This document shows, in pieces, positions 7,023 through 61,220 of a stretch of 64,000 nt of DNA. The stretch lies in the NCBI GenBank assembly GCA_046705145.1, contig JBJKQO010000033.1:4023-68022 (forward strand), read 5' to 3'. Below the pieces are notes generated by a model, which was given only the letters and a program-made list of their open reading frames with translations, did not search any database and had not been told where the DNA came from. The stretch comes from Candidatus Woesearchaeota archaeon. Lineage in GTDB: Archaea > Nanobdellota > Nanobdellia > Woesearchaeales > JBJKQO01. Position 1 is the stretch's first letter; each line of letters begins with the position of its first letter. The position numbers were made by a program, and so were the translations under genes.

Positions 7023-8198
7023 ATGAAGTTTCGAAAGATTGATGAATTTGTTTTTGATGACAAGAAAGTGCTTCTGAGAGCTGATTTCAACGTGCCTGTC
7101 GACGACAAAGGTAACGTATTAAATGACAAGAAGATAAGGGCGACGATCCCCACCATAAAAAAGCTTCTTGACAAGAATGCCAGGCAGATAATCATCATGT
7201 CCCATCTTGGAAGGCCAAAAGGACAGGTAGTTGAAAAATGGAAGATGAACAGTGTTGCGAAGAGGCTTTCTGAACTTTTAGGACAAGAAGTAGTCAAGCT
7301 TGATAACTGCATAGACGTTGTCATACCTAAAGACAAGAAGCTTGTGATGCTTGAAAACCTGAGGTTTCATGCAGAGGAAAAGAGCAATGACATGGCATTT
7401 GCAAGGAAGCTTGCAGGACTCGGCCATGTCTATGTAAATGACGCTTTTGGCGTATCCCACAGGGCAGACGCCTCGCTTGACGCTATCGCGCAGCGCCTTC
7501 CAGGATGCGCAGGGCTTCTCATGCAAAAAGAGATAGAGACCCTCGGAAATGCGATGGAATCTCCTCAAAGGCCTTTTGTCGCGATAATCGGAGGGCTTAA
7601 GGTCTCTGACAAGATACTTTTGATCGAGCACCTCCTGCCAAAAGTTGACACCCTCATAATAGGAGGGGCTATGATGTTTACTTTCTGGAAGGCAAAAGGA
7701 TATGAGATCTCAAACTCCATCGTCGAACAGGACAAGATCGAATTTGCAAAAGGCCTTCTTAAGAACCCAAAGATCGTACTTCCTGTCGATACCCTTGCAG
7801 GAAAGGAGATGAAGCCAGGCACAGAGAAGAAAGAGTTTGATGACAACAAGATGGAGCCGGGCTGGATAGGCCTTGACGTGGGCAGGAAAAGCGTCGATCT
7901 TTTCAAGACCCGGCTGCAGCACGCGTCGACTATACTTTGGAACGGCCCGCTAGGATGGTTTGAGGACCCTCAGTTTGAAAGCGGCACAAAAGAGTTAGCA
8001 AAAGCGCTTGCAGCCTCGACTGCCCTTACGATAGTAGGAGGAGGAGAAAGCGCTACAGCGATCGAGAAATACGGACTTCAGGACAAGATCACCCATGTCT
8101 CGACAGGAGGAGGAGCATGCATAGAGTTTATCGAAGGAAAAGAGCTTCCAGGCATCAAGGCTCTTGAGAAGAATATAAGCCTGTTCCCTCAGGAGTGA
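7023..8198 (+). CDS. pgk: phosphoglycerate kinase
   Basis: RADFNVP, IIIMSHLGRPKG and GGGA...STGGGA motifs. An AGGTG Shine-Dalgarno sequence lies 9 nt upstream. Confidence 0.9.
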   Translation: MKFRKIDEFVFDDKKVLLRADFNVPVDDKGNVLNDKKIRATIPTIKKLLDKNARQIIIMSHLGRPKGQVVEKWKMNSVAKRLSELLGQEVVKLDNCIDVVIPKDKKLVMLENLRFHAEEKSNDMAFARKLAGLGHVYVNDAFGVSHRADASLDAIAQRLPGCAGLLMQKEIETLGNAMESPQRPFVAIIGGLKVSDKILLIEHLLPKVDTLIIGGAMMFTFWKAKGYEISNSIVEQDKIEFAKGLLKNPKIVLPVDTLAGKEMKPGTEKKEFDDNKMEPGWIGLDVGRKSVDLFKTRLQHASTILWNGPLGWFEDPQFESGTKELAKALAASTALTIVGGGESATAIEKYGLQDKITHVSTGGGACIEFIEGKELPGIKALEKNISLFPQE

Positions 8199-9997: not shown

Positions 9998-10315
9998 ATG
10001 GCAGTTAACTTCAAGAAACTCAACTACGATGCCAAGGAAGTGGCAAAAGAAAGGATAAGGCTACTCTTTGACAAGGCAGACCTCATGTTCACATCAGATA
10101 AGGCTCTTGCAAACAGATACGTGACGCTTGCAAGAAAACTTGCCATGAAATACAAGGTACGGCTCCCATCTGAGCTCAAAAGGAGATACTGCAAGCACTG
10201 CTACAGGTACCTAAGGTCAGGAGAGAACCTCAGGATAAGGACAAGAGAAGGAAAGCTCGTCTATTACTGCCTCGAATGCAAGAAGTTCTGGAAGAAACCT
10301 ATAGGGAAGAAATAA
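9998..10315 (+). CDS. rnp4: RNase P protein component 4 (Rpp21/RNP4), zinc ribbon
   Basis: ERIRLLF...A.RYV.LARKL..K..VRLP..LKRRYCKHC...L..G.N.RIR...GKLVYYCLECK pattern with a CxxC...CxxC zinc ribbon. Confidence 0.7.
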   Translation: MAVNFKKLNYDAKEVAKERIRLLFDKADLMFTSDKALANRYVTLARKLAMKYKVRLPSELKRRYCKHCYRYLRSGENLRIRTREGKLVYYCLECKKFWKKPIGKK

Positions 10316-10324
10316 AAAAAATAA

Positions 10325-10530
10325 CAAAAATTGGCTAATTACTAATATTAGCTTGCCTATACTCAAAGCAAAGCTTTTCGTAATAGCAAACATAGTTTGC
10401 TATATCTCCGACCTAAAGGTCGGAGTATTACGGCTCGCTAATTTTGTTAGCCAATTTTTGGGATAGTAAAGTCGAGCCTGTATCTACAACCTAAAGGAAA
10501 TAGTATTAGGCTCGACTTTTCTATAAATAA
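10325..10530. repeat. structured intergenic repeat, family A, copy 1 (putative ncRNA or MITE-like element)
   Basis: The variable 5' module is closed by the stem ttggctaa...ttagccaa and contains internal hairpins. The conserved 3' hairpin is aagtcgagcct-N28-aggctcgactt followed by ttctataaat. A second copy is at 50821-51040. Confidence 0.6.
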
Positions 10531-10540
10531 AAAATTCTGG

Positions 10541-11125
10541 TTACTTAAACAATCCAAATCCTGGAACGTCTGCCTTAAGCGCTACTCCATGATCTCCTGT
10601 GCATTGGTCATTGTAGACATCAAGAGTCTCACAGAATTCGCCCCAGATCTTCACTCCGCCATATGCTGCGCAATCATAATCAGCTGTTGGCATTGCAACG
10701 ATCTTTACAAACTCGTTCCATTTGCAGACCTGTCCGTCATCTCCTATATACTCACCTGACATATGGTTTGTTAACCATGCTCCTGAGCCGATATAGCTTG
10801 GAAGCCCATAGTGCCTGTCAAGAAGCCCGTCTCCGTCGCAGTCCATGTTGCTTAGCCATGCGTCGTTCCATTTCATAGAAAGCTTGTCATCCTTGTATGG
10901 CTGGCACCATGCAGCGTCCCTGTAAGCGTCGCAGTAATATCCGTTGAAAAGATGCGCCTGGTAGTTGTATCCCCAGACGTCATATCCTGTGGTTATCACG
11001 CTTCCGTCGCTTGCAAGCAGAGTTCCGCTCTGTATCGTTGTGCAGCTTGTTTTTTTTGCCATAGCCGTAGCGCTTAGCATCAAAAGCAAAGATACAGCCA
11101 AGGCAAGAAATATCGTTTTCTTCAT
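10541..11125 (-). CDS. secreted cysteine-rich protein, unknown function
   Basis: N-terminal signal peptide MKKTIFLALAVSLLLMLSATAMA followed by about 12 Cys. Confidence 0.5.
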   Translation of the reverse strand: MKKTIFLALAVSLLLMLSATAMAKKTSCTTIQSGTLLASDGSVITTGYDVWGYNYQAHLFNGYYCDAYRDAAWCQPYKDDKLSMKWNDAWLSNMDCDGDGLLDRHYGLPSYIGSGAWLTNHMSGEYIGDDGQVCKWNEFVKIVAMPTADYDCAAYGGVKIWGEFCETLDVYNDQCTGDHGVALKADVPGFGLFK

Positions 11126-12182: not shown

Positions 12183-12240
12183 ATCCCTAAGAAAGCTCGA
12201 AAACTATTTAAATGCTTGTCTGATTCGCCTTATGATAAAT

Positions 12241-12374
12241 GAGCCTGTAGCCTAGCCTGGATAGGGCGTCTGCCTCCTACTTCATCAGGAGAAGAGAGCA
12301 GAAGACCGGGGGTTCGAACAGCCTGCGCCTGCAAGACCGCATAAAGCGCGGCTTTGAAAGTCCCCCCAGGCTCA
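12241..12374 (+). tRNA. tRNA-Arg(CCU) with two introns (canonical 37/38 and T-loop 59/60)
   Basis: Acceptor GAGCCTG/CAGGCTC plus A discriminator, D-arm GCCT-AGCCTGGATA-GGGC, anticodon stem TCTGC/GCAGA with loop CTCCTA+17-nt intron, and T-arm GGGGG-TTCGAA[42-nt intron]T-CCCCC. It is followed by a TTTTTTT tract; no CCA is encoded. Confidence 0.55.
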
Positions 12375-39174: not shown

Positions 39175-39280
39175 TGGACCCGGCGGGATTTTCACAATCC
39201 AAAGTATTGAACCCGCTGCCTTCCGCGTTCCGGTCTCAAGAAAAGCCAGGCGGACACTCTACCGATGAGCTACGGGCCCA
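39175..39280 (-). tRNA. tRNA-Ala(GGC) with two introns (anticodon loop and T-loop)
   Basis: Acceptor GGGCCCG/CGGGTCC with the G3:U70 Ala identity pair, D-arm GCTC-ATCGGTA-GAGT, anticodon stem TCCGC/GCGGA with loop CTGGC[16-nt intron]AC, and T-arm GCGGG-TTCAA[17-nt intron]AT-CCCGC. The A discriminator is followed by CTTTTTTT. Confidence 0.6.
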
Positions 39281-43651: not shown

Positions 43652-46117
43652 ATGTTAGCGACTTTAAGGGCAGCAAGTATTAATTCTTTAGGTAGAAGGT
43701 CTGATGACCATCTCAGCCTTATTTTCAGCCTTACAAGAGGGCAGGAATCTGGAGGATCACTTGCTTCAGGAACACCAGGGATGAGGCGGCCGCAAGAGCA
43801 GACAATGCCTAAATTTGAAGAACCTTTAGATAACAAGGGTGTTTCGCACACAGTTGATGCAACTGAGATATCAGACCTTGTGATCCCTGAATTTTCAGGT
43901 ATTGCGGCAAAGGCCTATGACCTTAGCACAACAGCTATAAGCAAAAGCAAGACAAATGCTGTATCCTCAGACTACACATCAAATATCGTAAGGCAAGCTG
44001 TTTCTGACACTTTTGCCCCCTATGCCGGATTTGTTTCACTCGCTAGGCAGATGAACCTAGTTTTAGCATACACAAGCCTGCATGGTTACTCAGCTGTATT
44101 AGCAAACCCTTTAGAACTTAGCTATTCATCAAGCACAGCATATGCTCAAGCCTATGTGTATAATAAAATCTCCTATGAAACCGGATATCATACTCAATAT
44201 GAAGCAAGAACTGATATTCTTGCGCTTGCAATGGCAGAATATAGGCCTTATGTTATGGTTACAGGGCTAAATGAAGGGCTAGTTTCTGAAATGGCTTTTG
44301 AAAGCACATTCCAAAATGCATACGCAAGACCAATAGCCCAGAATTTTGAAGAGCTGGTTTCTGAGACAATTGATATAATAAGAGAAGGATTTCAGCCTGA
44401 ACAAGAGTACATCCCAGAATATGCCAGATCATATGCTGCTGAACTGGAACTGATGGTCGATGCTTTCGCAAGGCCAGAAGCCTTGGTCAGGGCAAGAGAA
44501 GCAGAACTCCTTTTGACTATCGAGTATGCTATGGGCAGGGTATTTGACAAAGCAATTGAGACTTTCACCCATGATGAATACACTCTTATCGAATCACTTG
44601 CGTACGAAAGCACAAAAGAGAACATCCAGGTTAATATTTTCCCAATAACTGAATTAAGTATTTTGGATAGGGTCATTCTTACGAACTTAGCTGCAACTGA
44701 TGATTACAGCCAGAATGATACTGAAACTGAATTAAGCCCTGATGTTCAGGAATTATCAAAAATATCATCTGATGCTGGTACTGCTTCAATAAACCTTACA
44801 TATTCAAATCCCTTATCTGAAGCAGCTGTAAAATTTAGGCACGCTGACTTTAAGCACAATGTTAGGAACGTCCCTATTAAGCTTGCTGAAAGGAAATACG
44901 ATAAACCACCAGAAAGGCTTGATGTGCCTTACTTCAAAAGAGAAGACTGCGACTGCGGCGTAAACGCCATATTGTTAAGCATGACTCAGATCAAAGAAAG
45001 GGAAGACTGCGACTGTGGAGTTACCCCTCAGCTAATAAGCTATTCCAAACTAAGGAATAAAGAAAATACTATTCCACTGTTCAACCGTAACCAACGAGAG
45101 GACTGCGACTGCGGCGTAACTGCACATTTTGAAAGGGGGCTTTTGCAGATCGATTATTCTGTCAACAAGCAGATGAAACATGCTATCAAGGCAAAGGATA
45201 AAAATGGGAATATCATAGATATAACTGGGCGAGCTAAAGGCACAGTTCTTGAAGAGATCGAACGGGTTCTTAGCGGGATGGGGTTAAGACCTGATTATCA
45301 TGAGTCCCAAGATGGAAATGGATTTTATATCAAAAGGATAAAGGGAGTCAATAACGTCGGTTACAGGGTCATCATCAGAAACAAGAATACCGGCGAACTC
45401 AGATATATCAAGCAGGGCATAGATTCTGAAAGATTCAATAAGGGACTTGAAGAAGTTATGATAGAATATGTTGGAAAGGGGGATATCAGGAAAGTTGACG
45501 ATTCTGTTTTAGACGGAAAGTATTTCAGGAAAGTAAGAGGGTGGCAGGGGAGCTATGCCCATGGCATCCGAGAGTTCGGATCATTTAAGGTGACGGCGGA
45601 GCAGGCTGCCGATAGTTCAGTGTATATCCTAGATATCCAGACAAAAGAAGGTGTAAAGAAACATTCTTTTATTGGAAACACCGCCGAAGCTTTAGTGCAC
45701 AAATACCTCGTAGAAAACGGATTTACTCCTGAATATAAAATACACCTAATTGAAGGCAAGCTTAAGCTCGAACTAAAAGACATCAAGGATGCAGCAGGAA
45801 ACAGCATAGCAAGAGATCATGATGATGCAGGATACATAATAGGCAAGATTGACGCATCAGGCCAAAGGTCTGAATTGCTTGATAATAATGGTATTAAGTC
45901 TTTAAGCGCCTGTGAATACCAAACAAAACAAGGGGATATCATATCATTGACTAGGATACTCCAGGGATTATTTGATATGGTGGATGTCAATGAAACATGT
46001 TACAAGCAAAGATATGGGGCTCCTATTCAGCAAAATAAGACTAATATTGTCAGGATGCCTTCCAGGACACAATCAAAACCTGTAGAAACAAGATATGATA
46101 TGGCTGTCGGATATTAA
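43652..46117 (+). CDS. large hypothetical protein with three REDCDCGV repeats
   Basis: 821 aa. KREDCDCGVNA, REDCDCGVTPQ and REDCDCGVTAH recur at intervals of about 22-35 aa. The N-terminal half is alpha-helical and Ala/Tyr/Glu-rich. Start uncertain. Confidence 0.5.
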   Translation: MLATLRAASINSLGRRSDDHLSLIFSLTRGQESGGSLASGTPGMRRPQEQTMPKFEEPLDNKGVSHTVDATEISDLVIPEFSGIAAKAYDLSTTAISKSKTNAVSSDYTSNIVRQAVSDTFAPYAGFVSLARQMNLVLAYTSLHGYSAVLANPLELSYSSSTAYAQAYVYNKISYETGYHTQYEARTDILALAMAEYRPYVMVTGLNEGLVSEMAFESTFQNAYARPIAQNFEELVSETIDIIREGFQPEQEYIPEYARSYAAELELMVDAFARPEALVRAREAELLLTIEYAMGRVFDKAIETFTHDEYTLIESLAYESTKENIQVNIFPITELSILDRVILTNLAATDDYSQNDTETELSPDVQELSKISSDAGTASINLTYSNPLSEAAVKFRHADFKHNVRNVPIKLAERKYDKPPERLDVPYFKREDCDCGVNAILLSMTQIKEREDCDCGVTPQLISYSKLRNKENTIPLFNRNQREDCDCGVTAHFERGLLQIDYSVNKQMKHAIKAKDKNGNIIDITGRAKGTVLEEIERVLSGMGLRPDYHESQDGNGFYIKRIKGVNNVGYRVIIRNKNTGELRYIKQGIDSERFNKGLEEVMIEYVGKGDIRKVDDSVLDGKYFRKVRGWQGSYAHGIREFGSFKVTAEQAADSSVYILDIQTKEGVKKHSFIGNTAEALVHKYLVENGFTPEYKIHLIEGKLKLELKDIKDAAGNSIARDHDDAGYIIGKIDASGQRSELLDNNGIKSLSACEYQTKQGDIISLTRILQGLFDMVDVNETCYKQRYGAPIQQNKTNIVRMPSRTQSKPVETRYDMAVGY

Positions 46118-48066: not shown

Positions 48067-48384
48067 CTACTGTTTTGTCCTTTATAAGCTTTGTGGAAAA
48101 TTAATCAGATTCGGCTTCTTTAACCTCTGTTCATAATGTATTTATAAAGGTTTTATCATAATAATGTGTATCAAGATCAAACACCTCAAACCTAACCTTG
48201 CTTTCCCGGAGCCTTCCGGGAGGCAATTATAATCAATCAAACACCTCAAACCCAAAAAAATGCATACTTGGCCTTCACCAAGCCAAGATGCAGTTTTTTA
48301 TTATACTCACCAAAACACCTCTTTGAACACACACCTTGCGTTTTTCCGCAATCCTTTAGGGGTTGCGGAAGGTTTTTCTTATCC

Positions 48385-48993
48385 TTATATATCCAAAAGG
48401 TTTGTACTATCATGAGTAACATATAGATCAAGTTTTTTTCCACTCTCTGAATTTTCTAGATTGACCCTTGTCCCGCCTAAACCTGCTGAGACACTTGCAA
48501 CAGAAACTTCCCTCCCGATATCACTCATATAAAGACCTGAATGCCTATCAAAAGTAAGGGTTACCTTTCCTTTTTCTCTTTCTGGAATCTTAGGTTTGAC
48601 CCTAAATCCCTGCTTGTACCCATCATATCCCTGACTGGCACCACACAACACTGTCCTATTCTGTAAGACTACACCCCAATTATCAAATAAGTACCCAAGA
48701 ATATCTTGTGCCACAACAGCACATCTTCTTACTTCATCAAACCCATGTTTTATCTGTCCAAGCGATGCTGAAAGATTTGTTATTGCATCTGGGTAAGCTC
48801 TCCATAGCAGATTATTTTTTGTTGTTACAACAGCAGATTCAGATTCCTTGGTATGTTTTAATAACTCTTCTAAGGGGTAAAGGCTACCATCAATCCTCAC
48901 CCTTATAGAGATATCAGTTATAGTATCATAACCTTCTCCATCCCCCCTATAAGGAAATGACAAACATTGTTCTATTATCATTTTTTCCCCCAT
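48385..48993 (-). CDS. hypothetical protein (third gene of a three-gene cluster)
   Basis: 202 aa, no known motif. Confidence 0.4.
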   Translation of the reverse strand: MGEKMIIEQCLSFPYRGDGEGYDTITDISIRVRIDGSLYPLEELLKHTKESESAVVTTKNNLLWRAYPDAITNLSASLGQIKHGFDEVRRCAVVAQDILGYLFDNWGVVLQNRTVLCGASQGYDGYKQGFRVKPKIPEREKGKVTLTFDRHSGLYMSDIGREVSVASVSAGLGGTRVNLENSESGKKLDLYVTHDSTNLLDI

Positions 48994-49041
48994 TTAAGCA
49001 TTTCATTATGCTGTGGAATCATTTTTTTATCAAAAATAAAC

Positions 49042-50088
49042 TTATTGGATCATTATTTCAATCCCATCCTGATGACGCTGAGGGTGATCATGTTTCACTC
49101 CCTTTTCATCTAATACTTTATAAGCCGGTTTAAGCAGGCCATCTAGAACAGATCCGATCTGGGCGGCAATACATTTCATATTTGCAAGAATTGTGGCTTT
49201 GTTTTTAGGTGATGAGTCCCTTAATGTATTTGCAGTTGAAAGATAGGTGGCATATAACCCCCACAGTTTTTCAAAACATGATGTATCAAGCTTAACTTCA
49301 ATTCTGGTTGGATCGGTATATATCTCATCAAGGTCATATCCTTGTTCAGGTCTTGCAAAACAGATTACTCTTCTGTTAGGCTCAACCCCATAAATATCCA
49401 TAACCCTCCTTTCTGAATCTGGATCAAATACCCTCAAGATGAATCTAGGTTGAGATCCTTCTTCAGCAGAATAAGACATTAGATATGTTGAGTTTAAGTT
49501 TCTTCTTATCATTTTTCCTCTTGTTACAAAGGGGTATGATATATGATGATCCTCTTTAGCCATTTTGTTTATTGCTCCTATCAAAGAGTCTAACATCTCT
49601 GAACCTGAATTCGCAATCACTATAGTGCCATCTAGTCTATGATATCCTATTAGATCTGGAGAAAGAAATTGACCTGTACTGATATCCACATTACAGGGAA
49701 CATCTTTAAAAGCTTCGGTGAGTTCATCGATTGTAGTTTCAGGACGCAGAAAAGACGCAGTAACAATGCCTGCATGAGAAGGATGTGTTCTTTGTTGCAC
49801 AATATAGGAACTTAGTTTTTCTGCGAGTCCGCCTTTAATATGAGATTTAGGCATCATATTTAGGAGGGAAGGATTTTTAAAATCAACATGCCAAACATCA
49901 ACAATTTCAGGATTGGGAGTGTCAACTAAAGGCAAACCATCTACCACCCTTACCTCCTGAATAATGTCTCCAAATTGATCCCAAAAGGTTCTAAAAACCC
50001 CATCTTCACACTTTAACAGTTTTCTCCTTAGTGTTGAATCATCAAAAAAAAATCCCGGCATGTATATTCTTGCTTGTCCTTCACTCAT
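49042..50088 (-). CDS. hypothetical protein (second gene of the cluster)
   Basis: 348 aa, no known motif. Confidence 0.4.
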   Translation of the reverse strand: MSEGQARIYMPGFFFDDSTLRRKLLKCEDGVFRTFWDQFGDIIQEVRVVDGLPLVDTPNPEIVDVWHVDFKNPSLLNMMPKSHIKGGLAEKLSSYIVQQRTHPSHAGIVTASFLRPETTIDELTEAFKDVPCNVDISTGQFLSPDLIGYHRLDGTIVIANSGSEMLDSLIGAINKMAKEDHHISYPFVTRGKMIRRNLNSTYLMSYSAEEGSQPRFILRVFDPDSERRVMDIYGVEPNRRVICFARPEQGYDLDEIYTDPTRIEVKLDTSCFEKLWGLYATYLSTANTLRDSSPKNKATILANMKCIAAQIGSVLDGLLKPAYKVLDEKGVKHDHPQRHQDGIEIMIQ

Positions 50089-50139
50089 GCTTATCCCCTC
50101 TCATAAGATATTTCTCTGAATGTGTCTCTTCTAACTAAT

Positions 50140-50706
50140 TTATCTGCCACATTTTGCTTCATCTAAAGTTATGGTTATAAGATTGGACTTTTGATTGTAG
50201 GGTAGATCAAGCGCTAGTACCGTAGGATGTATTCTTGAGTCAAATGCTTCAGCAATAAGCTGAGCTCCAGTATAAGGATCTAATTCTCCCTCTAGACCAA
50301 ACTCTCTTAATGCTTGATTTACTATAGCTGGGGAAGCAATGTAAATTTGTGCTTTTCTTGGTACAAACAAACTTCCGGGTTTTCTGACAATGGATTCTAT
50401 TTCAGAAGTCGCTAAATCGTTGGGTTTAGGCTTTGCAGTCACCAGCCCATTATAAACCGCCAATAAACACGCAAGATATTCCACAACTGCACCTTGACGA
50501 ACATTTAGTTCAGATCCTTCTTTTTCATAGGTAGTAGAGCATGTTTCGCAGTTGAACTCCAGAAGAGACAGACCCTGTATCAACCTTGTGCAACGTGCTA
50601 TCTCTAAAAATGTTTCACGCAATTCATCTTTAGGGATAGTAGTATCGGGTACTGCTATCATCCCAACATAAGCATTGATATTTGGCATTTCTGGTTCGCT
50701 CATTTT
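50140..50706 (-). CDS. hypothetical protein (first gene of the cluster)
   Basis: The likely start is MKMSEPEM at 50706. Confidence 0.4.
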   Translation of the reverse strand, partial: KMSEPEMPNINAYVGMIAVPDTTIPKDELRETFLEIARCTRLIQGLSLLEFNCETCSTTYEKEGSELNVRQGAVVEYLACLLAVYNGLVTAKPKPNDLATSEIESIVRKPGSLFVPRKAQIYIASPAIVNQALREFGLEGELDPYTGAQLIAEAFDSRIHPTVLALDLPYNQKSNLITITLDEAKCGR

Positions 50707-50820
50707 CATATCCCCCCAAAACCATTTCAAGATTATTATTTTAAAGTAGAAACACTTTTTCATATTTAAAGCCGCATTTGAAGATTTTTTGTAAAAAAGA
50801 ACTATTTAGGGGAGAAATAG

Positions 50821-51040
50821 GAATAACGCAAAGTCGCTAATTACCAATATGCTCGCCCTATCCCTTGCCTGAAGGTAGGGGTATTAGGGCTCGCACTAGT
50901 GTTAGCGACTTTGCGGAACAACAAAAATCGAAGATTTTTGTGTTCAATTAAAGCTTCGCTTTAATTTGAATAGGAAAGTCGAGCCTGTATCTACAACCTA
51001 AAGGAACTAGTATTAGGCTCGACTTTTCTATAAATCAAGA
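50821..51040. repeat. structured intergenic repeat, family A, copy 2
   Basis: The 5' module is closed by gtcgctaa...ttagcgac (compensatory relative to copy 1). The 3' hairpin aagtcgagcctgtatctacaacctaaaggaactagtattaggctcgactt is about 97% identical to copy 1. Confidence 0.6.
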
Positions 51041-51064
51041 AGATTTAAGTAAATTTAAATAGGA

Positions 51065-56027: not shown

Positions 56028-56156
56028 AGTCTCCTACCTCAACAGTATAGTTGCATTTAGATAGTCCTATAAGTGAATGATATATAATAAACTTGTTCCA
56101 TAAATTTTTGTAAAAACGCAAAATTTATATATCGAATAGGAATATCTTATATAATA

Positions 56157-57164
56157 ATGGCAGATCTAGATAAGATTGATATTAAACTACTGGCAATCCT
56201 GGAAGAAGATGGCAGACAATCCTTATCGCAGATAGCAAAAAAGCTCAATACTTCTCAACAGGTTGTCAGCTACAGGATCAAATCTCTTGAAAAAAGGAAT
56301 ATCATAGGAGGATATTATACATTCATAAATTTTCTAAGGCTAGGCTATACCAGTTTCAGGACGATGATATCATTCAGCAACATAAATAAAACCAAACATA
56401 AGGAGATCATCTCTTTTCTTATGGATCATCCGAACGTCCTTTGGCTTGTTGACTGCAGCGGAAGGTGGGACCTGATAATTAACTTTCTGGCAAAAAACAT
56501 CATCCAGTACGAATCGATGTTCAATGAGTTCAGAAAAATGTTTCCAGACCAGATCCAAAACTATGACATACTCCCAACAGTTGAAGTGTCTTATTTCGGA
56601 AGAGATTACATAATGAAAAAACATAGGGACCTCAGAAAGAGTTCACTTCTCGGAAAAGAGTACGGGACAGACAGCCTGGACTTACTAAACTATAACATCC
56701 TTAAGATGATCTCAAAAAATGCAAGAATCCCTGCAGTTGAGATAGCAAATAAGCTTAAAGTTAGCCCTAACACTGTAATCCTTCGGCTTAATGAGCTAAA
56801 AAGAACCGGCATGATACAAGGTTATACCACGCTACTTCATCTGGATTATACAGGTTATAGCAGTTACAAGGCATTAATAAAGATATTTAATACGACCGAA
56901 GAAAAGGAAAATGCAATAATCAATAACCTGAGGTCTAACGTGAATGTAGTTGGATTCGTGAAACTTGTAGGATCCTGGAACTTTGAGATAGAATTTGAAG
57001 TAGAAACAAATGAGCAGATGATTGAACTCACAAGAGATATTAGAGACCGGTTCAGGGACAATATCAAGGAATTTGAGATAATCCAACTGCTTCACGAGTA
57101 TAAGTATGACTTCTTTCCTGGAGACCTGCTGGAAGACAACCCTAAAAAAAGCAATAAAAAATAA
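56157..57164 (+). CDS. double-domain Lrp/AsnC-like regulator, array paralog 1
   Basis: DIKLLAILEEDGRQSLSQIAKKLNTSQQVVSYRIKSL and NILKMISKNARIPAVEIANKLKVSPNTVILRLNEL HTHs, each followed by a RAM-like domain. C-terminus LHEYKYDFFPGDLLE. Confidence 0.65.
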   Translation: MADLDKIDIKLLAILEEDGRQSLSQIAKKLNTSQQVVSYRIKSLEKRNIIGGYYTFINFLRLGYTSFRTMISFSNINKTKHKEIISFLMDHPNVLWLVDCSGRWDLIINFLAKNIIQYESMFNEFRKMFPDQIQNYDILPTVEVSYFGRDYIMKKHRDLRKSSLLGKEYGTDSLDLLNYNILKMISKNARIPAVEIANKLKVSPNTVILRLNELKRTGMIQGYTTLLHLDYTGYSSYKALIKIFNTTEEKENAIINNLRSNVNVVGFVKLVGSWNFEIEFEVETNEQMIELTRDIRDRFRDNIKEFEIIQLLHEYKYDFFPGDLLEDNPKKSNKK

Positions 57165-57174
57165 CAAGGATCAA

Positions 57175-57243
57175 TCATTCAACCCTGCATTCACAATTAT
57201 CAGTTTCGACAGGTTTTAACTCATAATAGTGTTCTTCGACCAT
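57175..57243 (-). CDS. micro-ORF P5 (MVEEHYYELKPVETDNCECRVE)
   Basis: 22 aa. GGAGGG Shine-Dalgarno sequence 8 nt upstream. Divergent from Lrp paralog 2; its stop lies 10 nt past the stop of paralog 1. Confidence 0.45.
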   Translation of the reverse strand: MVEEHYYELKPVETDNCECRVE

Positions 57244-57357
57244 TTTAGTTCCCTCCTAAGTTATAATAATGTATAACTTCGAGATTAATTAAAGTATACG
57301 CCATATTTTTTTGTTAAATCGAAATATTTATATATAATTATTATATACCACAAAAAT

Positions 57358-58365
57358 ATGGTAATACTTGATAAAACCGATTTAAAGTTATTGTCGGAAT
57401 TAGATGATGATGCAAGACAGACCGTTTCAAAGATAGCAAAAACCCTAAACACCTCACAACAGGTCATCAGTTTCCGAATTAACTCCCTAAAGAGGAAAGA
57501 GATCATAAGCGAATACTACTCAATAATTAATTTTACAAAGCTGGGTTACACAAGTTACAGGACAATGATACGCTTCAGCAACATAAACAAGCAAAAACAC
57601 CAAGAGATCATAAAATATTTAACAGATCATCCAAACGTGCTATGGCTCGTCGACTGTGGTGGAAGATGGGATCTCCTCGTTAACTTTTTGGCAAAAGATA
57701 TAAAACAATACAGCATCATGTTCAATTCTTTTAAGAGCAGATTCCCGCAGCAGATAAGAAATTATGATGTCTTGACCACAATCGATTTTGTCTATCCTGG
57801 AAGAGCCTATTTATTTGGGCGAAAACCTGATAAGCCTAACAGGCCTTATGTAGGGATAGAAAGAGAGAAAGTAACCCTAGACAACACAGACTTAAACATC
57901 CTAAAAATGATATCTGAGGATGCGAGGCTAAGTAGTGTGATAATAGGCAATCACTTGGGGATAAGCTCTAATACTGTTATGACCCGGATAAAAGAGATGG
58001 GGAAAAAAGGGGTTCTTCTTGGAGCAAAGCCCCTAATCCATCTCGAAAACACCCCTTACAGGGGATATAAGGCACTTATTAAGTTTCAGGACATAACAGA
58101 AGAAAAAGAAAAAAGCATCATAAGCTTCCTGATGGAATTCGAGAATATAGTCGGCATAATAAGGATGGTGGGGATGTGGGATTTTGAGTTAGAGATCGAG
58201 TCAGAAAAACAGGAGGATGTGGTCGATATGATGAGATCCCTTCGGGACAGGTTCCATGATGTGATAAAAGAGTTTGAGATGTTCCCTTTGTTTCACGAAT
58301 ATAAGTACAACTTCTTTCCCAGAGATCTGCTGGAAGAGCATTCTGGCGAAAATATAACAAAGTAA
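57358..58365 (+). CDS. double-domain Lrp/AsnC-like regulator, array paralog 2
   Basis: Same architecture as paralog 1, about 50% identical. C-terminus FHEYKYNFFPRDLLE. Confidence 0.65.
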   Translation: MVILDKTDLKLLSELDDDARQTVSKIAKTLNTSQQVISFRINSLKRKEIISEYYSIINFTKLGYTSYRTMIRFSNINKQKHQEIIKYLTDHPNVLWLVDCGGRWDLLVNFLAKDIKQYSIMFNSFKSRFPQQIRNYDVLTTIDFVYPGRAYLFGRKPDKPNRPYVGIEREKVTLDNTDLNILKMISEDARLSSVIIGNHLGISSNTVMTRIKEMGKKGVLLGAKPLIHLENTPYRGYKALIKFQDITEEKEKSIISFLMEFENIVGIIRMVGMWDFELEIESEKQEDVVDMMRSLRDRFHDVIKEFEMFPLFHEYKYNFFPRDLLEEHSGENITK

Positions 58366-58443
58366 CAAAAATAATAAGCCCTGATGTTTCTATCCGGGTT
58401 ATTGCGCAAAATATAATTCGTGTTCAAGCTGATTTAGGCAATA

Positions 58444-58512
58444 TCACTCCATCCTAGCTTCGCAATCATCAGGGTCTAATTCTTCCAATTTGAATTTTGT
58501 TTCTTCCTCCAT
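58444..58512 (-). CDS. micro-ORF P6 (MEEETKFKLEELDPDDCEARME)
   Basis: 22 aa. GGAGGT Shine-Dalgarno sequence 6 nt upstream. Variant C-terminus DCEARME-stop. Confidence 0.4.
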   Translation of the reverse strand: MEEETKFKLEELDPDDCEARME

Positions 58513-58637
58513 TTTATACCTCCAAGCAGGTTATACTGCTCATAGTATATAGTGACATGAAAAATAATAAAACCTGTATGTTATAATATTTGTAAAATAG
58601 GAAAATTTATATAATAAAAGAAAATATAACAAAAATT

Positions 58638-59636
58638 ATGAAAAAAATTGATAAGATAGATCTCAAGATCATGTCTGCTTTAGACGATGATGCACATTGT
58701 TCGCTGTCTAGGTTAGCTAAAAAATTACAAACCTCCCAACAGGTCATAAGCTTTAGGCTGCAGTCCCTTAAAAAAAGGGGCATAATCAGCTCATTCTTTA
58801 CAGTTATTGATTTTACAAAGTTGGGATATACCAATTACAGGACAATGATCCGCTTTAGTAATATTGATGAAAAACGACATAAAGAAATAATTTATTTCCT
58901 AAGGGATCATCCCAGTGTGCTTTGGATCGTTGACTGCAGCGGAAGGTGGGACATTATAGTAAACTTTATGGCAAAGGACATAAGAAGGTATAACCTAATC
59001 ATAAGGGAATTTATCAATAGGTTTCCTGACCAGATCCAAAACTATGATGTTCTCACGACAGTTGAGCTATTGTATTTCAAAAGGGATTACTTTGACAAGA
59101 ATCATAGAAAAATAGATATCCTGCCCTATTTTGCTGATAACACTGAAATAATGAGTTTGGATGATATGAATATCAAAATCCTTGACCTTATATCAGAAGA
59201 TGCTAGACTTAGCTCAGTCGTAATAGCAAATAAGCTAAAACTAACTCCAAAGACCGTCCTTGCCAGGATAAAAGAGATGAAAAAAGAAGGTATCATCTGG
59301 GGATTTAAGCCGCTTATACATCTCGAAAACACCCCTTACCGCAGCTTTAAGGCTTTTGTGAAATTCCAAAACATAACTGAACAAAAAGAAAAACAGATCA
59401 TAGCCTTTTTTTCAGATAAGGCTAATGTGGTAGGTGTGATCCGTATGATAGGTCTTTGGGATTTTGAGGTGGAAATCGAGTCAGAAAGCCAGGAATATGT
59501 GATAAAACTCACAAGGGATTTCAGGGATAGATTTAAAGACATAATCAAAGAATTTGAGATAGTCCCCCTATTTCATGAGTACAAGTATAACTTCTTCCCA
59601 AGAGAACTAGTTAAAAAGAATGATACAAATACATAG
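58638..59636 (+). CDS. double-domain Lrp/AsnC-like regulator, array paralog 3
   Basis: Same architecture. C-terminus FHEYKYNFFPRELVK. Confidence 0.65.
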   Translation: MKKIDKIDLKIMSALDDDAHCSLSRLAKKLQTSQQVISFRLQSLKKRGIISSFFTVIDFTKLGYTNYRTMIRFSNIDEKRHKEIIYFLRDHPSVLWIVDCSGRWDIIVNFMAKDIRRYNLIIREFINRFPDQIQNYDVLTTVELLYFKRDYFDKNHRKIDILPYFADNTEIMSLDDMNIKILDLISEDARLSSVVIANKLKLTPKTVLARIKEMKKEGIIWGFKPLIHLENTPYRSFKAFVKFQNITEQKEKQIIAFFSDKANVVGVIRMIGLWDFEVEIESESQEYVIKLTRDFRDRFKDIIKEFEIVPLFHEYKYNFFPRELVKKNDTNT

Positions 59637-59642
59637 TCTCAT

Positions 59643-59705
59643 TTTATTCTGCCCTAGTCTCACAGGCATCAGGTTCTATTTTTTCGAATTCTTTGTTTTT
59701 TATCA
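59643..59705 (-). CDS. micro-ORF P7 (MIKNKEFEKIEPDACETRAE)
   Basis: 20 aa. GGAGGT Shine-Dalgarno sequence 7 nt upstream. Variant C-terminus ACETRAE-stop. Confidence 0.4.
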
Positions 59706-59826
59706 TTTTATAACCTCCTTATACATCTTCATCATAGTAAGTACTTTCAAAATTTATATAATTAATCACCATAATATTTTGTAAAATAACAAAATTTATA
59801 TAATATATCATCATAACACAATAAAT

Positions 59827-60822
59827 ATGACTAAAATGGATAAGTTTGATATGAAACTGCTTGCAGTGCTTGAGGAGGATGCAAGGCAAACCTCATCAAA
59901 AATAGCCAAAAGATTAAACACGTCACAACAGGTAGTCAGTTACAGGATCAAATCTCTGGAAAAAAGGAAGGTCATCATAGGATATTATCCTATCATTAAC
60001 ATCACAAAATTGGGTTACACAAGTTACAGGACAATGTTTCGGTTGAATGACACTGACAAGAAGACCCATTCAGAGATTGTCAAATACCTGAAAGAGAATT
60101 CCAATGTTTTGTGGTTTGTTGACTGCGGCGGAAGATGGGACCTAATAGTCAATTTTATAGCAAGGAATATCCTCCATTATAGCGCCCTATTAAGAGATTT
60201 CAGAAATTCCTTTAAGGGCCTGGTACAAAACCCTGATGTTCTTACGACTATTGAAATGATCCATCTGGGAAGAGAATACCTTACCAAAAAAAAGAGAGAA
60301 ATCATGGAACCCCCTCATTTCGGAAGAGAAGAAGAAAAAATTCTGCCTGACTTGACTAACCTGAAAATACTCAAAATCCTCTCAAAAGACGCCAGAACTA
60401 ATTCGGTACAGATTTCACAGGAACTAGGGATAAGGCCGAGTACAGTTATGCTAAGGATAAAAGACATGAAAAAGTCTGGAATTATCCAAGGGTTTAGGGC
60501 GCAGCTCAACTTAGAAAATACACCTTACAAAGGGTATAAGGCAGTCGTGAAATTCCAGAACATAACTGAAGAAGTAGAGCATGATATCATAGGTTACCTA
60601 AATCAGGACGTAAGGGTTTACGCAATAATAAGGATTATAGGCCTCTGGGACTTTGAGATAGAATTTGAGGTCGAGAATAATGAGCAGATGCTTGAGCTGA
60701 CAAGGTCTTTTAGGGACAAGTTCAAGGAACATATCAAAGAATTTGAGGTAATACCCCTATTCCATGAGTACCGCTACAACTTCTTTCCTGGAGACCTGCT
60801 GGAAAACAACGCAAAACTATAA
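59827..60822 (+). CDS. double-domain Lrp/AsnC-like regulator, array paralog 4
   Basis: Same architecture. C-terminus FHEYRYNFFPGDLLE. Confidence 0.65.
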   Translation: MTKMDKFDMKLLAVLEEDARQTSSKIAKRLNTSQQVVSYRIKSLEKRKVIIGYYPIINITKLGYTSYRTMFRLNDTDKKTHSEIVKYLKENSNVLWFVDCGGRWDLIVNFIARNILHYSALLRDFRNSFKGLVQNPDVLTTIEMIHLGREYLTKKKREIMEPPHFGREEEKILPDLTNLKILKILSKDARTNSVQISQELGIRPSTVMLRIKDMKKSGIIQGFRAQLNLENTPYKGYKAVVKFQNITEEVEHDIIGYLNQDVRVYAIIRIIGLWDFEIEFEVENNEQMLELTRSFRDKFKEHIKEFEVIPLFHEYRYNFFPGDLLENNAKL

Positions 60823-60848
60823 AAATCGAATCAACTTCTCTTTTTTGG

Positions 60849-60959
60849 ATGGACAACAAACCTGACGAATGGATCGATATGACAAAAGACCTTGAAAAGG
60901 GTTATTCTGAAGATCTTGACGAAGAAGAGGAATCAGAGACCTTTGAAGAAGAGGAATGA
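60849..60959 (+). CDS. small acidic ORF (MDNKPDEWIDMTKDLEKGYSEDLDEEEESETFEEEE), tentative
   Basis: 36 aa directly after the last Lrp paralog. No Shine-Dalgarno sequence. Could be spurious. Confidence 0.2.
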   Translation: MDNKPDEWIDMTKDLEKGYSEDLDEEEESETFEEEE

Positions 60960-60962
60960 ATC

Positions 60963-61220
60963 CTATTTCTCCTTTATCATCCTACCTATCCTGCGCTTGT
61001 GGGCATCAGCAGATTCTATCCTGGATATCTCGTGGATAACCTTTATAACAGCGACAAGGGAAAGCGCCATCAAAAACAGCGCCTGAGCTTTCGCAGGAAA
61101 ACCGATGTCAAAAAGCGCCTTACCTGTACTATAGCCATACAAAGAGCTAATAAAAACTGCAGAGAATACGACCAAAAGAGCCATAAGGGCATATAGTGCT
61201 TTCTTCCTGTACCGGTCCAT
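60963..61220 (-). CDS. small membrane protein (2 TM helices)
   Basis: LYALMALLVVFSAVFISSLY and AQALFLMALSLVAVIKVI hydrophobic helices. Confidence 0.4.
   Translation of the reverse strand: MDRYRKKALYALMALLVVFSAVFISSLYGYSTGKALFDIGFPAKAQALFLMALSLVAVIKVIHEISRIESADAHKRRIGRMIKEK

Follow-up and report, generated by a model that had tools for sequence, protein, structure and literature searches.

Insertion sequences (IS) of the IS200/IS605 family, such as IS608 of Helicobacter pylori and ISDra2 of Deinococcus radiodurans, move by 'peel and paste' single-strand transposition, which is carried out by a Y1 TnpA transposase. Each end has a subterminal imperfect hairpin, and the two hairpins point the same way on one strand. 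The elements insert beside a specific 4-5 nt sequence, and a cleavage motif encoded by the element lies at the right end. The cleavage site is selected by an internal guide sequence. The closest described archaeal systems are the haloarchaeal IS1341-type (TnpB-only) elements and the gene-less palindrome-associated transposable elements (PATEs) of the HqIRS56 type, which are multi-copy and intergenic and have near-terminal palindromes, no true terminal inverted repeats and a fixed short left-end target, TTATA. Here we describe two elements of similar build, E1 and E2, in a 64,000-nt stretch of contig JBJKQO010000033.1 from a Candidatus Woesearchaeota archaeon (the window). Their family is most likely small, gene-less, multi-copy mobile DNA of DPANN archaea, a new DPANN family of PATEs in the IS200/IS605 lineage.

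PATEs cause no target duplications (text and Table 4 in Dyall-Smith et al., 2011; PMC3119063). They undergo core deletion between their palindromes, and ~110-bp SMR-A repeats insert within the near-terminal palindromes (Dyall-Smith et al., 2011). Table S9 of the same paper gives the 5' end of HqIRS56 as 'TTATA TGCTGAGCAGGCGCAATACCACGATCTTCAGGCCGTGGATACGCGCC', with TTATA as the targeting sequence; the inverted terminal repeat (ITR) is entered as none, the target duplication field holds a dash, and strain-specific insertions are recorded. PATEs often encode omega-RNAs that are acted on in trans (Meers et al., 2023; PMC10055086).

Anatomy of E1 and E2

An earlier note on this DNA had described two copies of a repeat that end in a near-identical hairpin followed by ttctataaat, with 5' modules that differ in sequence and keep a long closing stem and a gctaatta box. 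All of this is present in both copies. The shared part is a 77-nt direct repeat with 92% identity (10458-10534 and 50965-51041) that contains aagtcgagcct...aggctcgactt and then ttctataaat. The closing stem of the 5' modules is ttggctaa/ttagccaa in E1 and gtcgctaa/ttagcgac in E2. The boundaries of E1, refined from the family consensus, run on the plus strand from ATAAC... to ...CT; ATAA follows both E1 and E2. The features are as follows, with ends named on the minus strand for reasons given below.

E1, whole element: 10321-10522, minus strand, left end to right end, 202 nt
E1 left-end module: 10462-10522, minus strand, the conserved hairpin of the earlier note; stem ATAG.AAAGTCGAGCC / GGCTCGACTTT.CTAT around a motif copy at 10481-10508
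E1 right-end module: 10321-10461, minus strand, the covarying module of the earlier note; closing stem AAAAATTGGCTAA / TTAGCCAATTTTT, motif copy at 10403-10430
E1 accessory insert: 10358-10402, no strand assigned, 45 nt, two small hairpins by TA/TC; not in E2 (from comparison of E1, E2 and relatives)
E1 presumed target tetranucleotide: 10523-10526, minus-strand TTAT (ATAA on the plus strand); reads TTATA together with 10522
E2, whole element: 50823-51029, minus strand, 207 nt
E2 left-end module: 50967-51029, minus strand, with a motif copy at 50988-51015
E2 right-end module: 50823-50916, minus strand; closing stem GCAAAGTCGCTAA / TTAGCGACTTTGC, motif copy at 50859-50886
E2 accessory hairpin pair between the modules: 50916-50966, no strand assigned; absent from E1
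E2 presumed target tetranucleotide: 51030-51033, TTAT on the minus strand

The motif common to all four modules is TATC-N5-CCTRAAGG-N5-GTATTA. It forms a 7-8 bp hairpin within a conserved internal loop and has four copies in the window (starting at 10403, 10481, 50859 and 50988), all on the plus strand and two per element. The number expected by chance is 0.1, even with three mismatches allowed. Both ends of each element carry one type of subterminal imperfect hairpin in one orientation: a lower stem, AAUAC, a 7-8 bp stem tipped by CC-UUNA-GG, GAUA(C), and the lower stem again. The minus strand of E1 terminates in GTTAT (ATAAC at 10321-10325 on the plus strand).

Both elements fold far better than shuffled sequences, with z-scores of -10.4 (E1) and -11.6 (E2) for plus-strand RNA and of -10.4 (E1) and -8.8 (E2) for minus-strand DNA. 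They are non-coding and too short for a transposase gene; the sole open reading frame (ORF) is a spurious one of 58 aa that overlaps E1.

Relatives in Other Archaea

A scan for the motif over one genome per species returned at least 109 loci, at least about 100 of them archaeal: Woesearchaeota, Nanoarchaeota, Micrarchaeota, some metagenome-assembled genomes (MAGs) of Methanosarcinales, and four haloarchaea. The MAG JAHJQL01 has more than 20 near-identical copies and JALWQS01 has over 15; many of the copies are located at contig ends. In 56 distinct archaeal motifs, 79% of the variable stem part of the hairpin is Watson-Crick paired, vs 33% in bacterial matches; since their stems pair this poorly, nine bacterial matches among those listed look like chance. 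A scan of viral contigs for the motif gave no matches. A metagenome scan with the window-type left end GTCGAGCCTGTATCTACAA gave seven matches, all in unrelated, apparently coding sequence and none with the hairpin motif, as chance would give.

Near-identical copies show where the element begins and ends. Similarity starts and stops sharply, in the order variable flank, ATAAC-AAAAA..., ...(C/T)AATAA, variable flank. In 79 of 82 distinct contexts, ATAA[CT] stands no more than 80 nt upstream of the motif; in control windows the figure is 27%. ATAA is constant beside the copies in other genomes. The relatives measure 150-300 nt. Their general plan on the plus strand starts with a module A, in which the closing stem bears an A-run and a T-run and is accompanied by an inner stem and by the motif. 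Next comes a junction, TTTTTGG-(G or two optional hairpins)-ATTGAAAAT, and then a module B, with a second long stem and a second motif copy, ahead of AATAA. The DPANN relatives have two motif copies as well, the second often more degenerate. Module B, the left-end module, resembles that of the window in locus L027, and the closing stem of E1, ATAACAAAAATTGGCTAAT...GTTAGCCAATTTTTGG, is present in L035.

The stems covary. Across 15 diverse copies the closing stem and hairpin are 89.9% paired, and both sides have changed in 12 of 18 pairs; none of 500 shuffles was as good, and slid controls were 31-60% paired. The earlier note's view that this is a real repeat family with a covarying module is thus confirmed. 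It had also proposed a covariance-model search across the genome and its relatives. Relatives with the motif do occur across archaeal genomes; within the 64-kb window, E1 and E2 are the sole elements that a covariance model built from relatives (R1) finds, at 10365-10461 (58.9 bits) and 50823-50916 (87 bits, E = 5e-17).

Short forms are deletions between the two motif copies (L044, L059, L063 and L078, compared with L010 and L040). Copies can also carry small hairpins, inserted at fixed spots next to the palindromes. The optional position held by the inter-module hairpins of E2 is also filled in L005, L027, L054 and several JAHJQL01 copies. Accessory hairpins of 22-30 nt stand beside (G)TA at such spots in the window (10358-10402, 50916-50966) and in L005, L062, L065 and L091. 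Within one genome their stems are common to different positions: AAAGC/GCTTT in E1 and E2, and GAGAAATG/CATTTCTC in JAHJQL01. In L005 the stems read CAAGAAAT[C/G]T/A[G/C]ATTTCTTTGTA, a compensatory change included. These hairpins may be duplicated or mobile mini-units.

One further observation concerns the junction between the DPANN modules, which on the minus strand reads TTTTAATCCCAAAAA or ATTTTCAATCCCAAAAA (e.g., in L012 and L010). We take these sequences to be like the ends of some archaeal CRISPR repeats, which may be a coincidence.

Homology to a Known Transposon Left End

The haloarchaeal loci have a sharp end, ...GTATTAcgcctgttcagcNTATAA, with the motif ~20 nt away from it. In one of them (L002) this end stands 110 nt upstream of, and antisense to, a gene for a 418-aa IS1341-type TnpB (Pfam OrfB_IS605 and Cas12f1-like_TNB). 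A second locus (L042) has the same end plus the N-terminal part of a homologous TnpB at the edge of the locus. The 5' end sequence of HqIRS56 is the reverse complement of the window motif. Read on the minus strand, the window has TTATA-GAAAAGTCGAGCC-TAATAC-hairpin-GATAC-AGGCTC, so that the target, the 13-nt spacer, the unpaired loop residues and the short lower stem are alike. In full, the two left ends have in common TTATA, the 13-nt spacer, (C/T)AATAC, a hairpin tipped by CC-TTNA-GG, GATAC, and a lower stem of 5-6 bp. The left-end module of E1 agrees with the haloarchaeal left-end architecture, and the TTATA in its flank is the targeting sequence listed 5' of HqIRS56. Because of this homology to a known transposon end, the functional strand is the minus strand, the conserved module is the left end and the covarying module is the right end. 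The right end matches no IS605-type element that bears TnpB or a transposase; the left end matches HqIRS56, L002 and L042.

The resemblance to HqIRS56-type PATEs extends to the core deletions between palindromes and to the small inserts beside the palindromes, where the ~110-bp SMR-A inserts are comparable to the much smaller hairpin inserts of the DPANN elements. There are differences as well. The haloarchaeal elements are 530-570 nt long, compared with about 170-300 nt for the DPANN elements. The latter have a left-end-type hairpin at both ends and terminate in GTTAT rather than GGATGTCAA, their hairpins each lie within a long covarying closing stem, the optional hairpins occupy fixed sites, and a linked TnpB element turned up in none of the DPANN loci. 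Compared with the IS200/IS605 family proper, the DPANN element holds neither tnpA nor tnpB, and its target motif equals its right-end motif (TTAT). Bacterial repetitive extragenic palindromic (REP) sequences and REPINs, which are mobilised by REP-associated Y1 transposases (RAYTs), are likewise short extragenic palindromes in many copies, presumably served by an HUH/Y1 enzyme encoded elsewhere. REPINs, however, are inverted pairs of REPs with a GTAG-type head, whereas the motif copies described here are direct repeats inside an element with defined left and right ends, in archaeal hosts in which no RAYT was seen.

A Proposed Model for Transposition

E1 and E2 are probably non-autonomous IS200/IS605-type elements, i.e., PATEs, which a transposase supplied in trans would move in the form of hairpin-folded single-stranded DNA. 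What the sequences themselves display is the build of the element, its copy number, the sharpness of its ends, the covariation of the stems, the homology with a known transposon end, and TTAT/ATAA as a constant at both ends. The enzyme, the single-strand chemistry and the absence of a target duplication are what we infer from the HqIRS56 homology and from the mechanism of IS608 and ISDra2. On the minus strand the layout is 5'-TTAT(A) / left end ... right end-GTTAT / -3', where the slashes mark the element boundaries. TTAT(A/T) is constant at the left end and GTTAT at the right terminus, a pattern that is equally compatible with a duplication of ATAA. A hairpin at both ends in one orientation is the IS200/IS605 arrangement.

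The steps proposed here follow the IS608/ISDra2 mechanism. The ends of the element would fold on transiently single-stranded DNA, and a Y1 (HUH) TnpA-type transposase encoded elsewhere would bind both hairpins. Its cuts would fall after TTAT on the left flank and, at the right end, after GTTAT. The excised single-stranded circle would then be pasted 3' of another TTAT, without target duplication. The residues 5' of the hairpin, and the cleavage tetranucleotide, are alike at both ends, which would agree with the rule that a guide sequence selects the site. The presumed left cleavage site lies 19-20 nt from the foot of the hairpin, and in IS608 this distance is 19 nt. The TAA of ATAAC is often the stop codon of the neighboring gene, as expected from an element that lands at ATAA and brings its own ATAA.

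Several points weigh against this model. Searches of the 64-kb window and of ~800 kb of DPANN loci surrounding copies revealed no gene for TnpA or TnpB, although they were of low sensitivity and the loci are genome fragments in pieces of at most 8 kb. These searches used phmmer with the TnpB of L002, a zinc-finger regular expression, and one IS608 TnpA query, and they matched haloarchaeal loci only or nothing. A comparison of the joined flanks with all loci gave no empty site, just an artefact, and without an empty site the sequence also fits a target duplication of 3-4 bp, (A)TAA. The right-end hairpin lies 29-40 nt from the terminus, inside the long closing stem; in IS608 the distance is roughly 10 nt. 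A TnpA substrate is not known to need such long closing stems or the conserved optional hairpins, and the haloarchaeal homology is limited to the left-end module. The orientation of the elements does not correlate significantly with local GC skew (50 vs 36, p = 0.19), a correlation expected if transposition were replication-coupled and single-stranded.

If E1 and E2 are PATEs, they account for a class of structured intergenic repeats that is conspicuous in DPANN archaea and whose members break short-read assemblies and could pass for small RNA genes. The 28-nt hairpin motif, conserved across archaeal phyla, ties these repeats to haloarchaeal elements of the IS200/IS605 type and suggests that one transposase-recognition module may be common to very distant archaea. 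The simple pattern and the covariance model can now be used for masking and annotating the elements. Host genomes that lack the expected transposase, or elements that are transcribed as guides, would be of greater interest, if true.

Distribution and Strand

The elements are almost always intergenic. An all-against-all BLAST of 400 flanking ORFs found no protein family tied to them, and a Pfam scan of 132 ORFs of the MAG with the most copies found no transposase among the families with at least two matches; it covered the 25 most frequent of 209 families, so that single matches may have been missed. Between tandem gene pairs the element is sense in 14 cases and antisense in 16. Convergent intergenic regions are over-represented (20 of 60), and the upstream gene is co-oriented with the element in 50 cases and opposed in 30.

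Short-read assemblies of the source sample fail at both elements. Its Logan contigs break at 10344 in E1 and start at 50977 in E2. At E1 the end of a second contig is estimated to lie ~43 nt beyond the stop codon at 10541, near 10498 inside module B. At E2 a second contig is estimated to begin near 50956, which is 193 nt upstream of where the gene starts (50763). Both of these positions are calculated rather than mapped. Exact-protein look-ups of the neighboring genes returned solely short contigs of one sample, broken in the elements.

The plus-strand mismatches in the hairpins are G-U in 13 cases, A-C in 22 and other in 23. In the predicted folds of 54 elements G-U pairs number 130 and 129 on the two strands. 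With equal counts and no mismatch excess there is therefore no wobble signature of the RNA type. Over the same number of elements the minus strand folds better than the plus strand by a mean of 1.6 kcal/mol (p = 0.04). Neither the mismatch nor the fold-energy test decides the functional strand, and the wobble and two-strand fold comparisons revealed no RNA-specific signal. At gathering thresholds, a search of the whole window against Rfam gave just a tRNA elsewhere, both elements gave sub-threshold noise at E <= 10, and ARAGORN found nothing. Group II intron domain V, H/ACA and C/D box sRNAs, k-turns, hammerhead-like cores and the IS110 bridge RNA were considered by eye and rejected, as the defining boxes or partner genes are missing.

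The evidence thus points to a mobile DNA element and not to an RNA gene. The earlier note had implied a structured RNA gene on the plus strand that is tied to its neighbors. That part is not supported: there is no Rfam family, no G-U excess and no orientation rule, the neighbors vary, copies lie at contig ends with sharp boundaries, and homology to a transposon end puts the function on the minus strand.

Alternative Explanations

A classical MITE (miniature inverted-repeat transposable element) would move as double-stranded DNA, its terminal inverted repeats served by a DDE transposase (e.g., IS5/Harbinger-like or IS630-like) and its TAA/ATAA target duplicated. Every copy does have ATAA at each side, neither the regular expression nor the one TnpA query revealed a Y1 transposase, and the termini are partly inverted repeats, e.g., TAACAAAAA-CTCG vs TATTGAAAATCTCG and, in E2, ATAACGCAAAGTCGC vs ATAGAAAAGTCGAG. 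The inverted similarity of the termini amounts to about 11 of 15-18 nt and arises because both modules have similar palindromic stems. Against a MITE, the two motif copies are direct rather than inverted, pairing is inside the modules and not between the ends, no DDE transposase recurs near the copies, and the conserved module matches, in target, spacing and hairpin, an IS605-type left end that is listed without ITRs, as one of the PATEs that lack target duplication (PMC3119063). We consider a MITE quite unlikely. Chance similarity, or a recent segmental duplication in this genome (the latter an objection from the earlier note itself), would fit the mere two copies detectable in the window. 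The flanks of E1 and E2 are unrelated, and therefore the pair is not a segmental duplication; in addition, the modules that are not shared have diverged and still pair, both modules have close relatives in other MAGs (L027 for the left-end module, L035 for the closing stem), and the motif is strongly enriched (4 copies vs 0.1 expected). We set this explanation aside as exceedingly improbable.

A mobile guide-RNA gene, which is compatible with a PATE, would be an omega-RNA-like scaffold on the minus strand that ends at GTTAT and reads into the flank, programming a TnpB-type nuclease in trans. PATEs often carry omega-RNAs, which are acted on in trans (PMC10055086). TnpB omega-RNA (reRNA) genes are, like the DPANN elements, structured and non-coding, ~150-250 nt long, and end exactly at the transposon right end, where the DPANN elements could continue into the flank to serve as a guide. 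Conservation of structure extends over the whole element, long closing stems and optional hairpins at fixed positions included, the minus strand folds slightly better, and the window copies have at their left end a TTTATAG that by eye looks like an archaeal TATA box. Yet no TnpB-like ORF was adjacent to the elements or detected in the window or the DPANN loci, the left-end-type hairpin at the right end is unlike the TnpB-proximal right end of the haloarchaeal relatives, and no pseudoknot or TnpB-coding remnant was identified in the DPANN elements. Added to this are the equal G-U counts on the two strands, hairpin mismatches that are A-C as often as G-U, the lack of a promoter conserved across the family, and the lack of an Rfam match. 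A guide-RNA gene is thus unlikely. A host-serving structured RNA or regulatory element on the plus strand (a 3'-UTR, a terminator module or a small RNA family) would account for the T-run that ends each module (TTTTTGG, CGACTTTTCT), for the frequent co-orientation with the upstream gene and the many convergent regions, and for the very strong folding z-scores. It is at odds with the even split of sense and antisense copies in tandem pairs, with E2 being antisense to both neighbors, with neighboring genes that are unrelated between loci, and with the missing G-U enrichment and Rfam family; copy number, location at contig ends and deletion derivatives are traits of transposons. We judge it very unlikely. 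It is also rather improbable that the DPANN elements are self-contained mobile RNA genes, or move by their hairpins without an IS200/IS605 transposase in reduced genomes such as these, with the 22-30 nt accessory hairpins as a related, ultra-small mobile unit. In the RNA-gene version of this idea, a minus-strand transcript would cover both hairpin modules and run past GTTAT into the flank, as the guide for an RNA-guided nuclease encoded in trans.

Genomic Setting and Other Features of the Window

The host is a DPANN-type archaeon, with a gene for Rpr2/Rpp21, TATA-like promoters and a bacterial-type phosphoglycerate kinase (PGK). The best named relatives of the PGK (gene at 7023-8198, plus strand) are bacterial or from Woesearchaeota, at ~50% identity; the first named one, at 49%, is from Woesearchaeota. 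The nearest homologue other than itself is just 64% identical, and the lineage is therefore poorly sampled. E1 lies between the converging ends of the Rpr2/Rpp21 gene (plus strand, ending at 10315) and an ORF with a signal peptide and eight cysteines (minus strand, ending at 10541), the secreted Cys-rich protein of the earlier note. In a relative (L120) the PGK-x-Rpr2 gene order is kept and no element follows Rpr2.

E2 is flanked by a methyltransferase gene and, as the earlier note had it, by a three-gene cluster. The cluster (48385-50763, minus strand) consists of three co-directional ORFs of 202, 348 and 207 aa without Pfam matches. It stands at the start of a stretch of lower GC (~48-60 kb, GC 0.30-0.39), which may be a genomic island. 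Downstream of the cluster (48170-48385, minus strand) is a hairpin with a CCUAAAGG tip as in the motif, though without the UAUC/GUAUUA loop. Besides this, the segment contains ATAATAAAAAACTGCAT...ATGCATTTTTTTGG, which resembles a closing stem (model R1, 19.6 bits, E = 0.26), and has GTTTGAGGTGTTTGAT in two exact copies. The short-read contig that carries the cluster is 2,650 nt long, and its far end falls near 48307 as calculated from this length rather than by mapping. This segment may represent a decayed repeat, or one of another kind, and with E2 it would bracket the three-ORF cluster.

A tRNA gene and a tRNA-like gene in the window were missed by ARAGORN. The tRNA gene, at 39175-39279 (minus strand), contains an intron and scores 45.5 bits against Rfam. 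The tRNA-like gene, at 12239-12372 (plus strand), has two insertions, one of ~19 nt that follows the anticodon and one of ~42 nt within the T-loop (GGGGGTTCGAA[...]TCCCCC); its Rfam tRNA score is just 16.9 bits, and it is probably an archaeal tRNA with multiple introns. At 56100-61000 (plus strand) lie four tandem paralogous units of ~1.2 kb each, with 65-77% identity, and a similar AT-rich, TATA-like 34-mer stands in front of each unit. Lastly, a 27-nt repeat, AAAGAGAAGACTGCGACTGCGGCGTAA, occurs three times at 44937-45119 (plus strand), with spacings of 60 and 96 nt.

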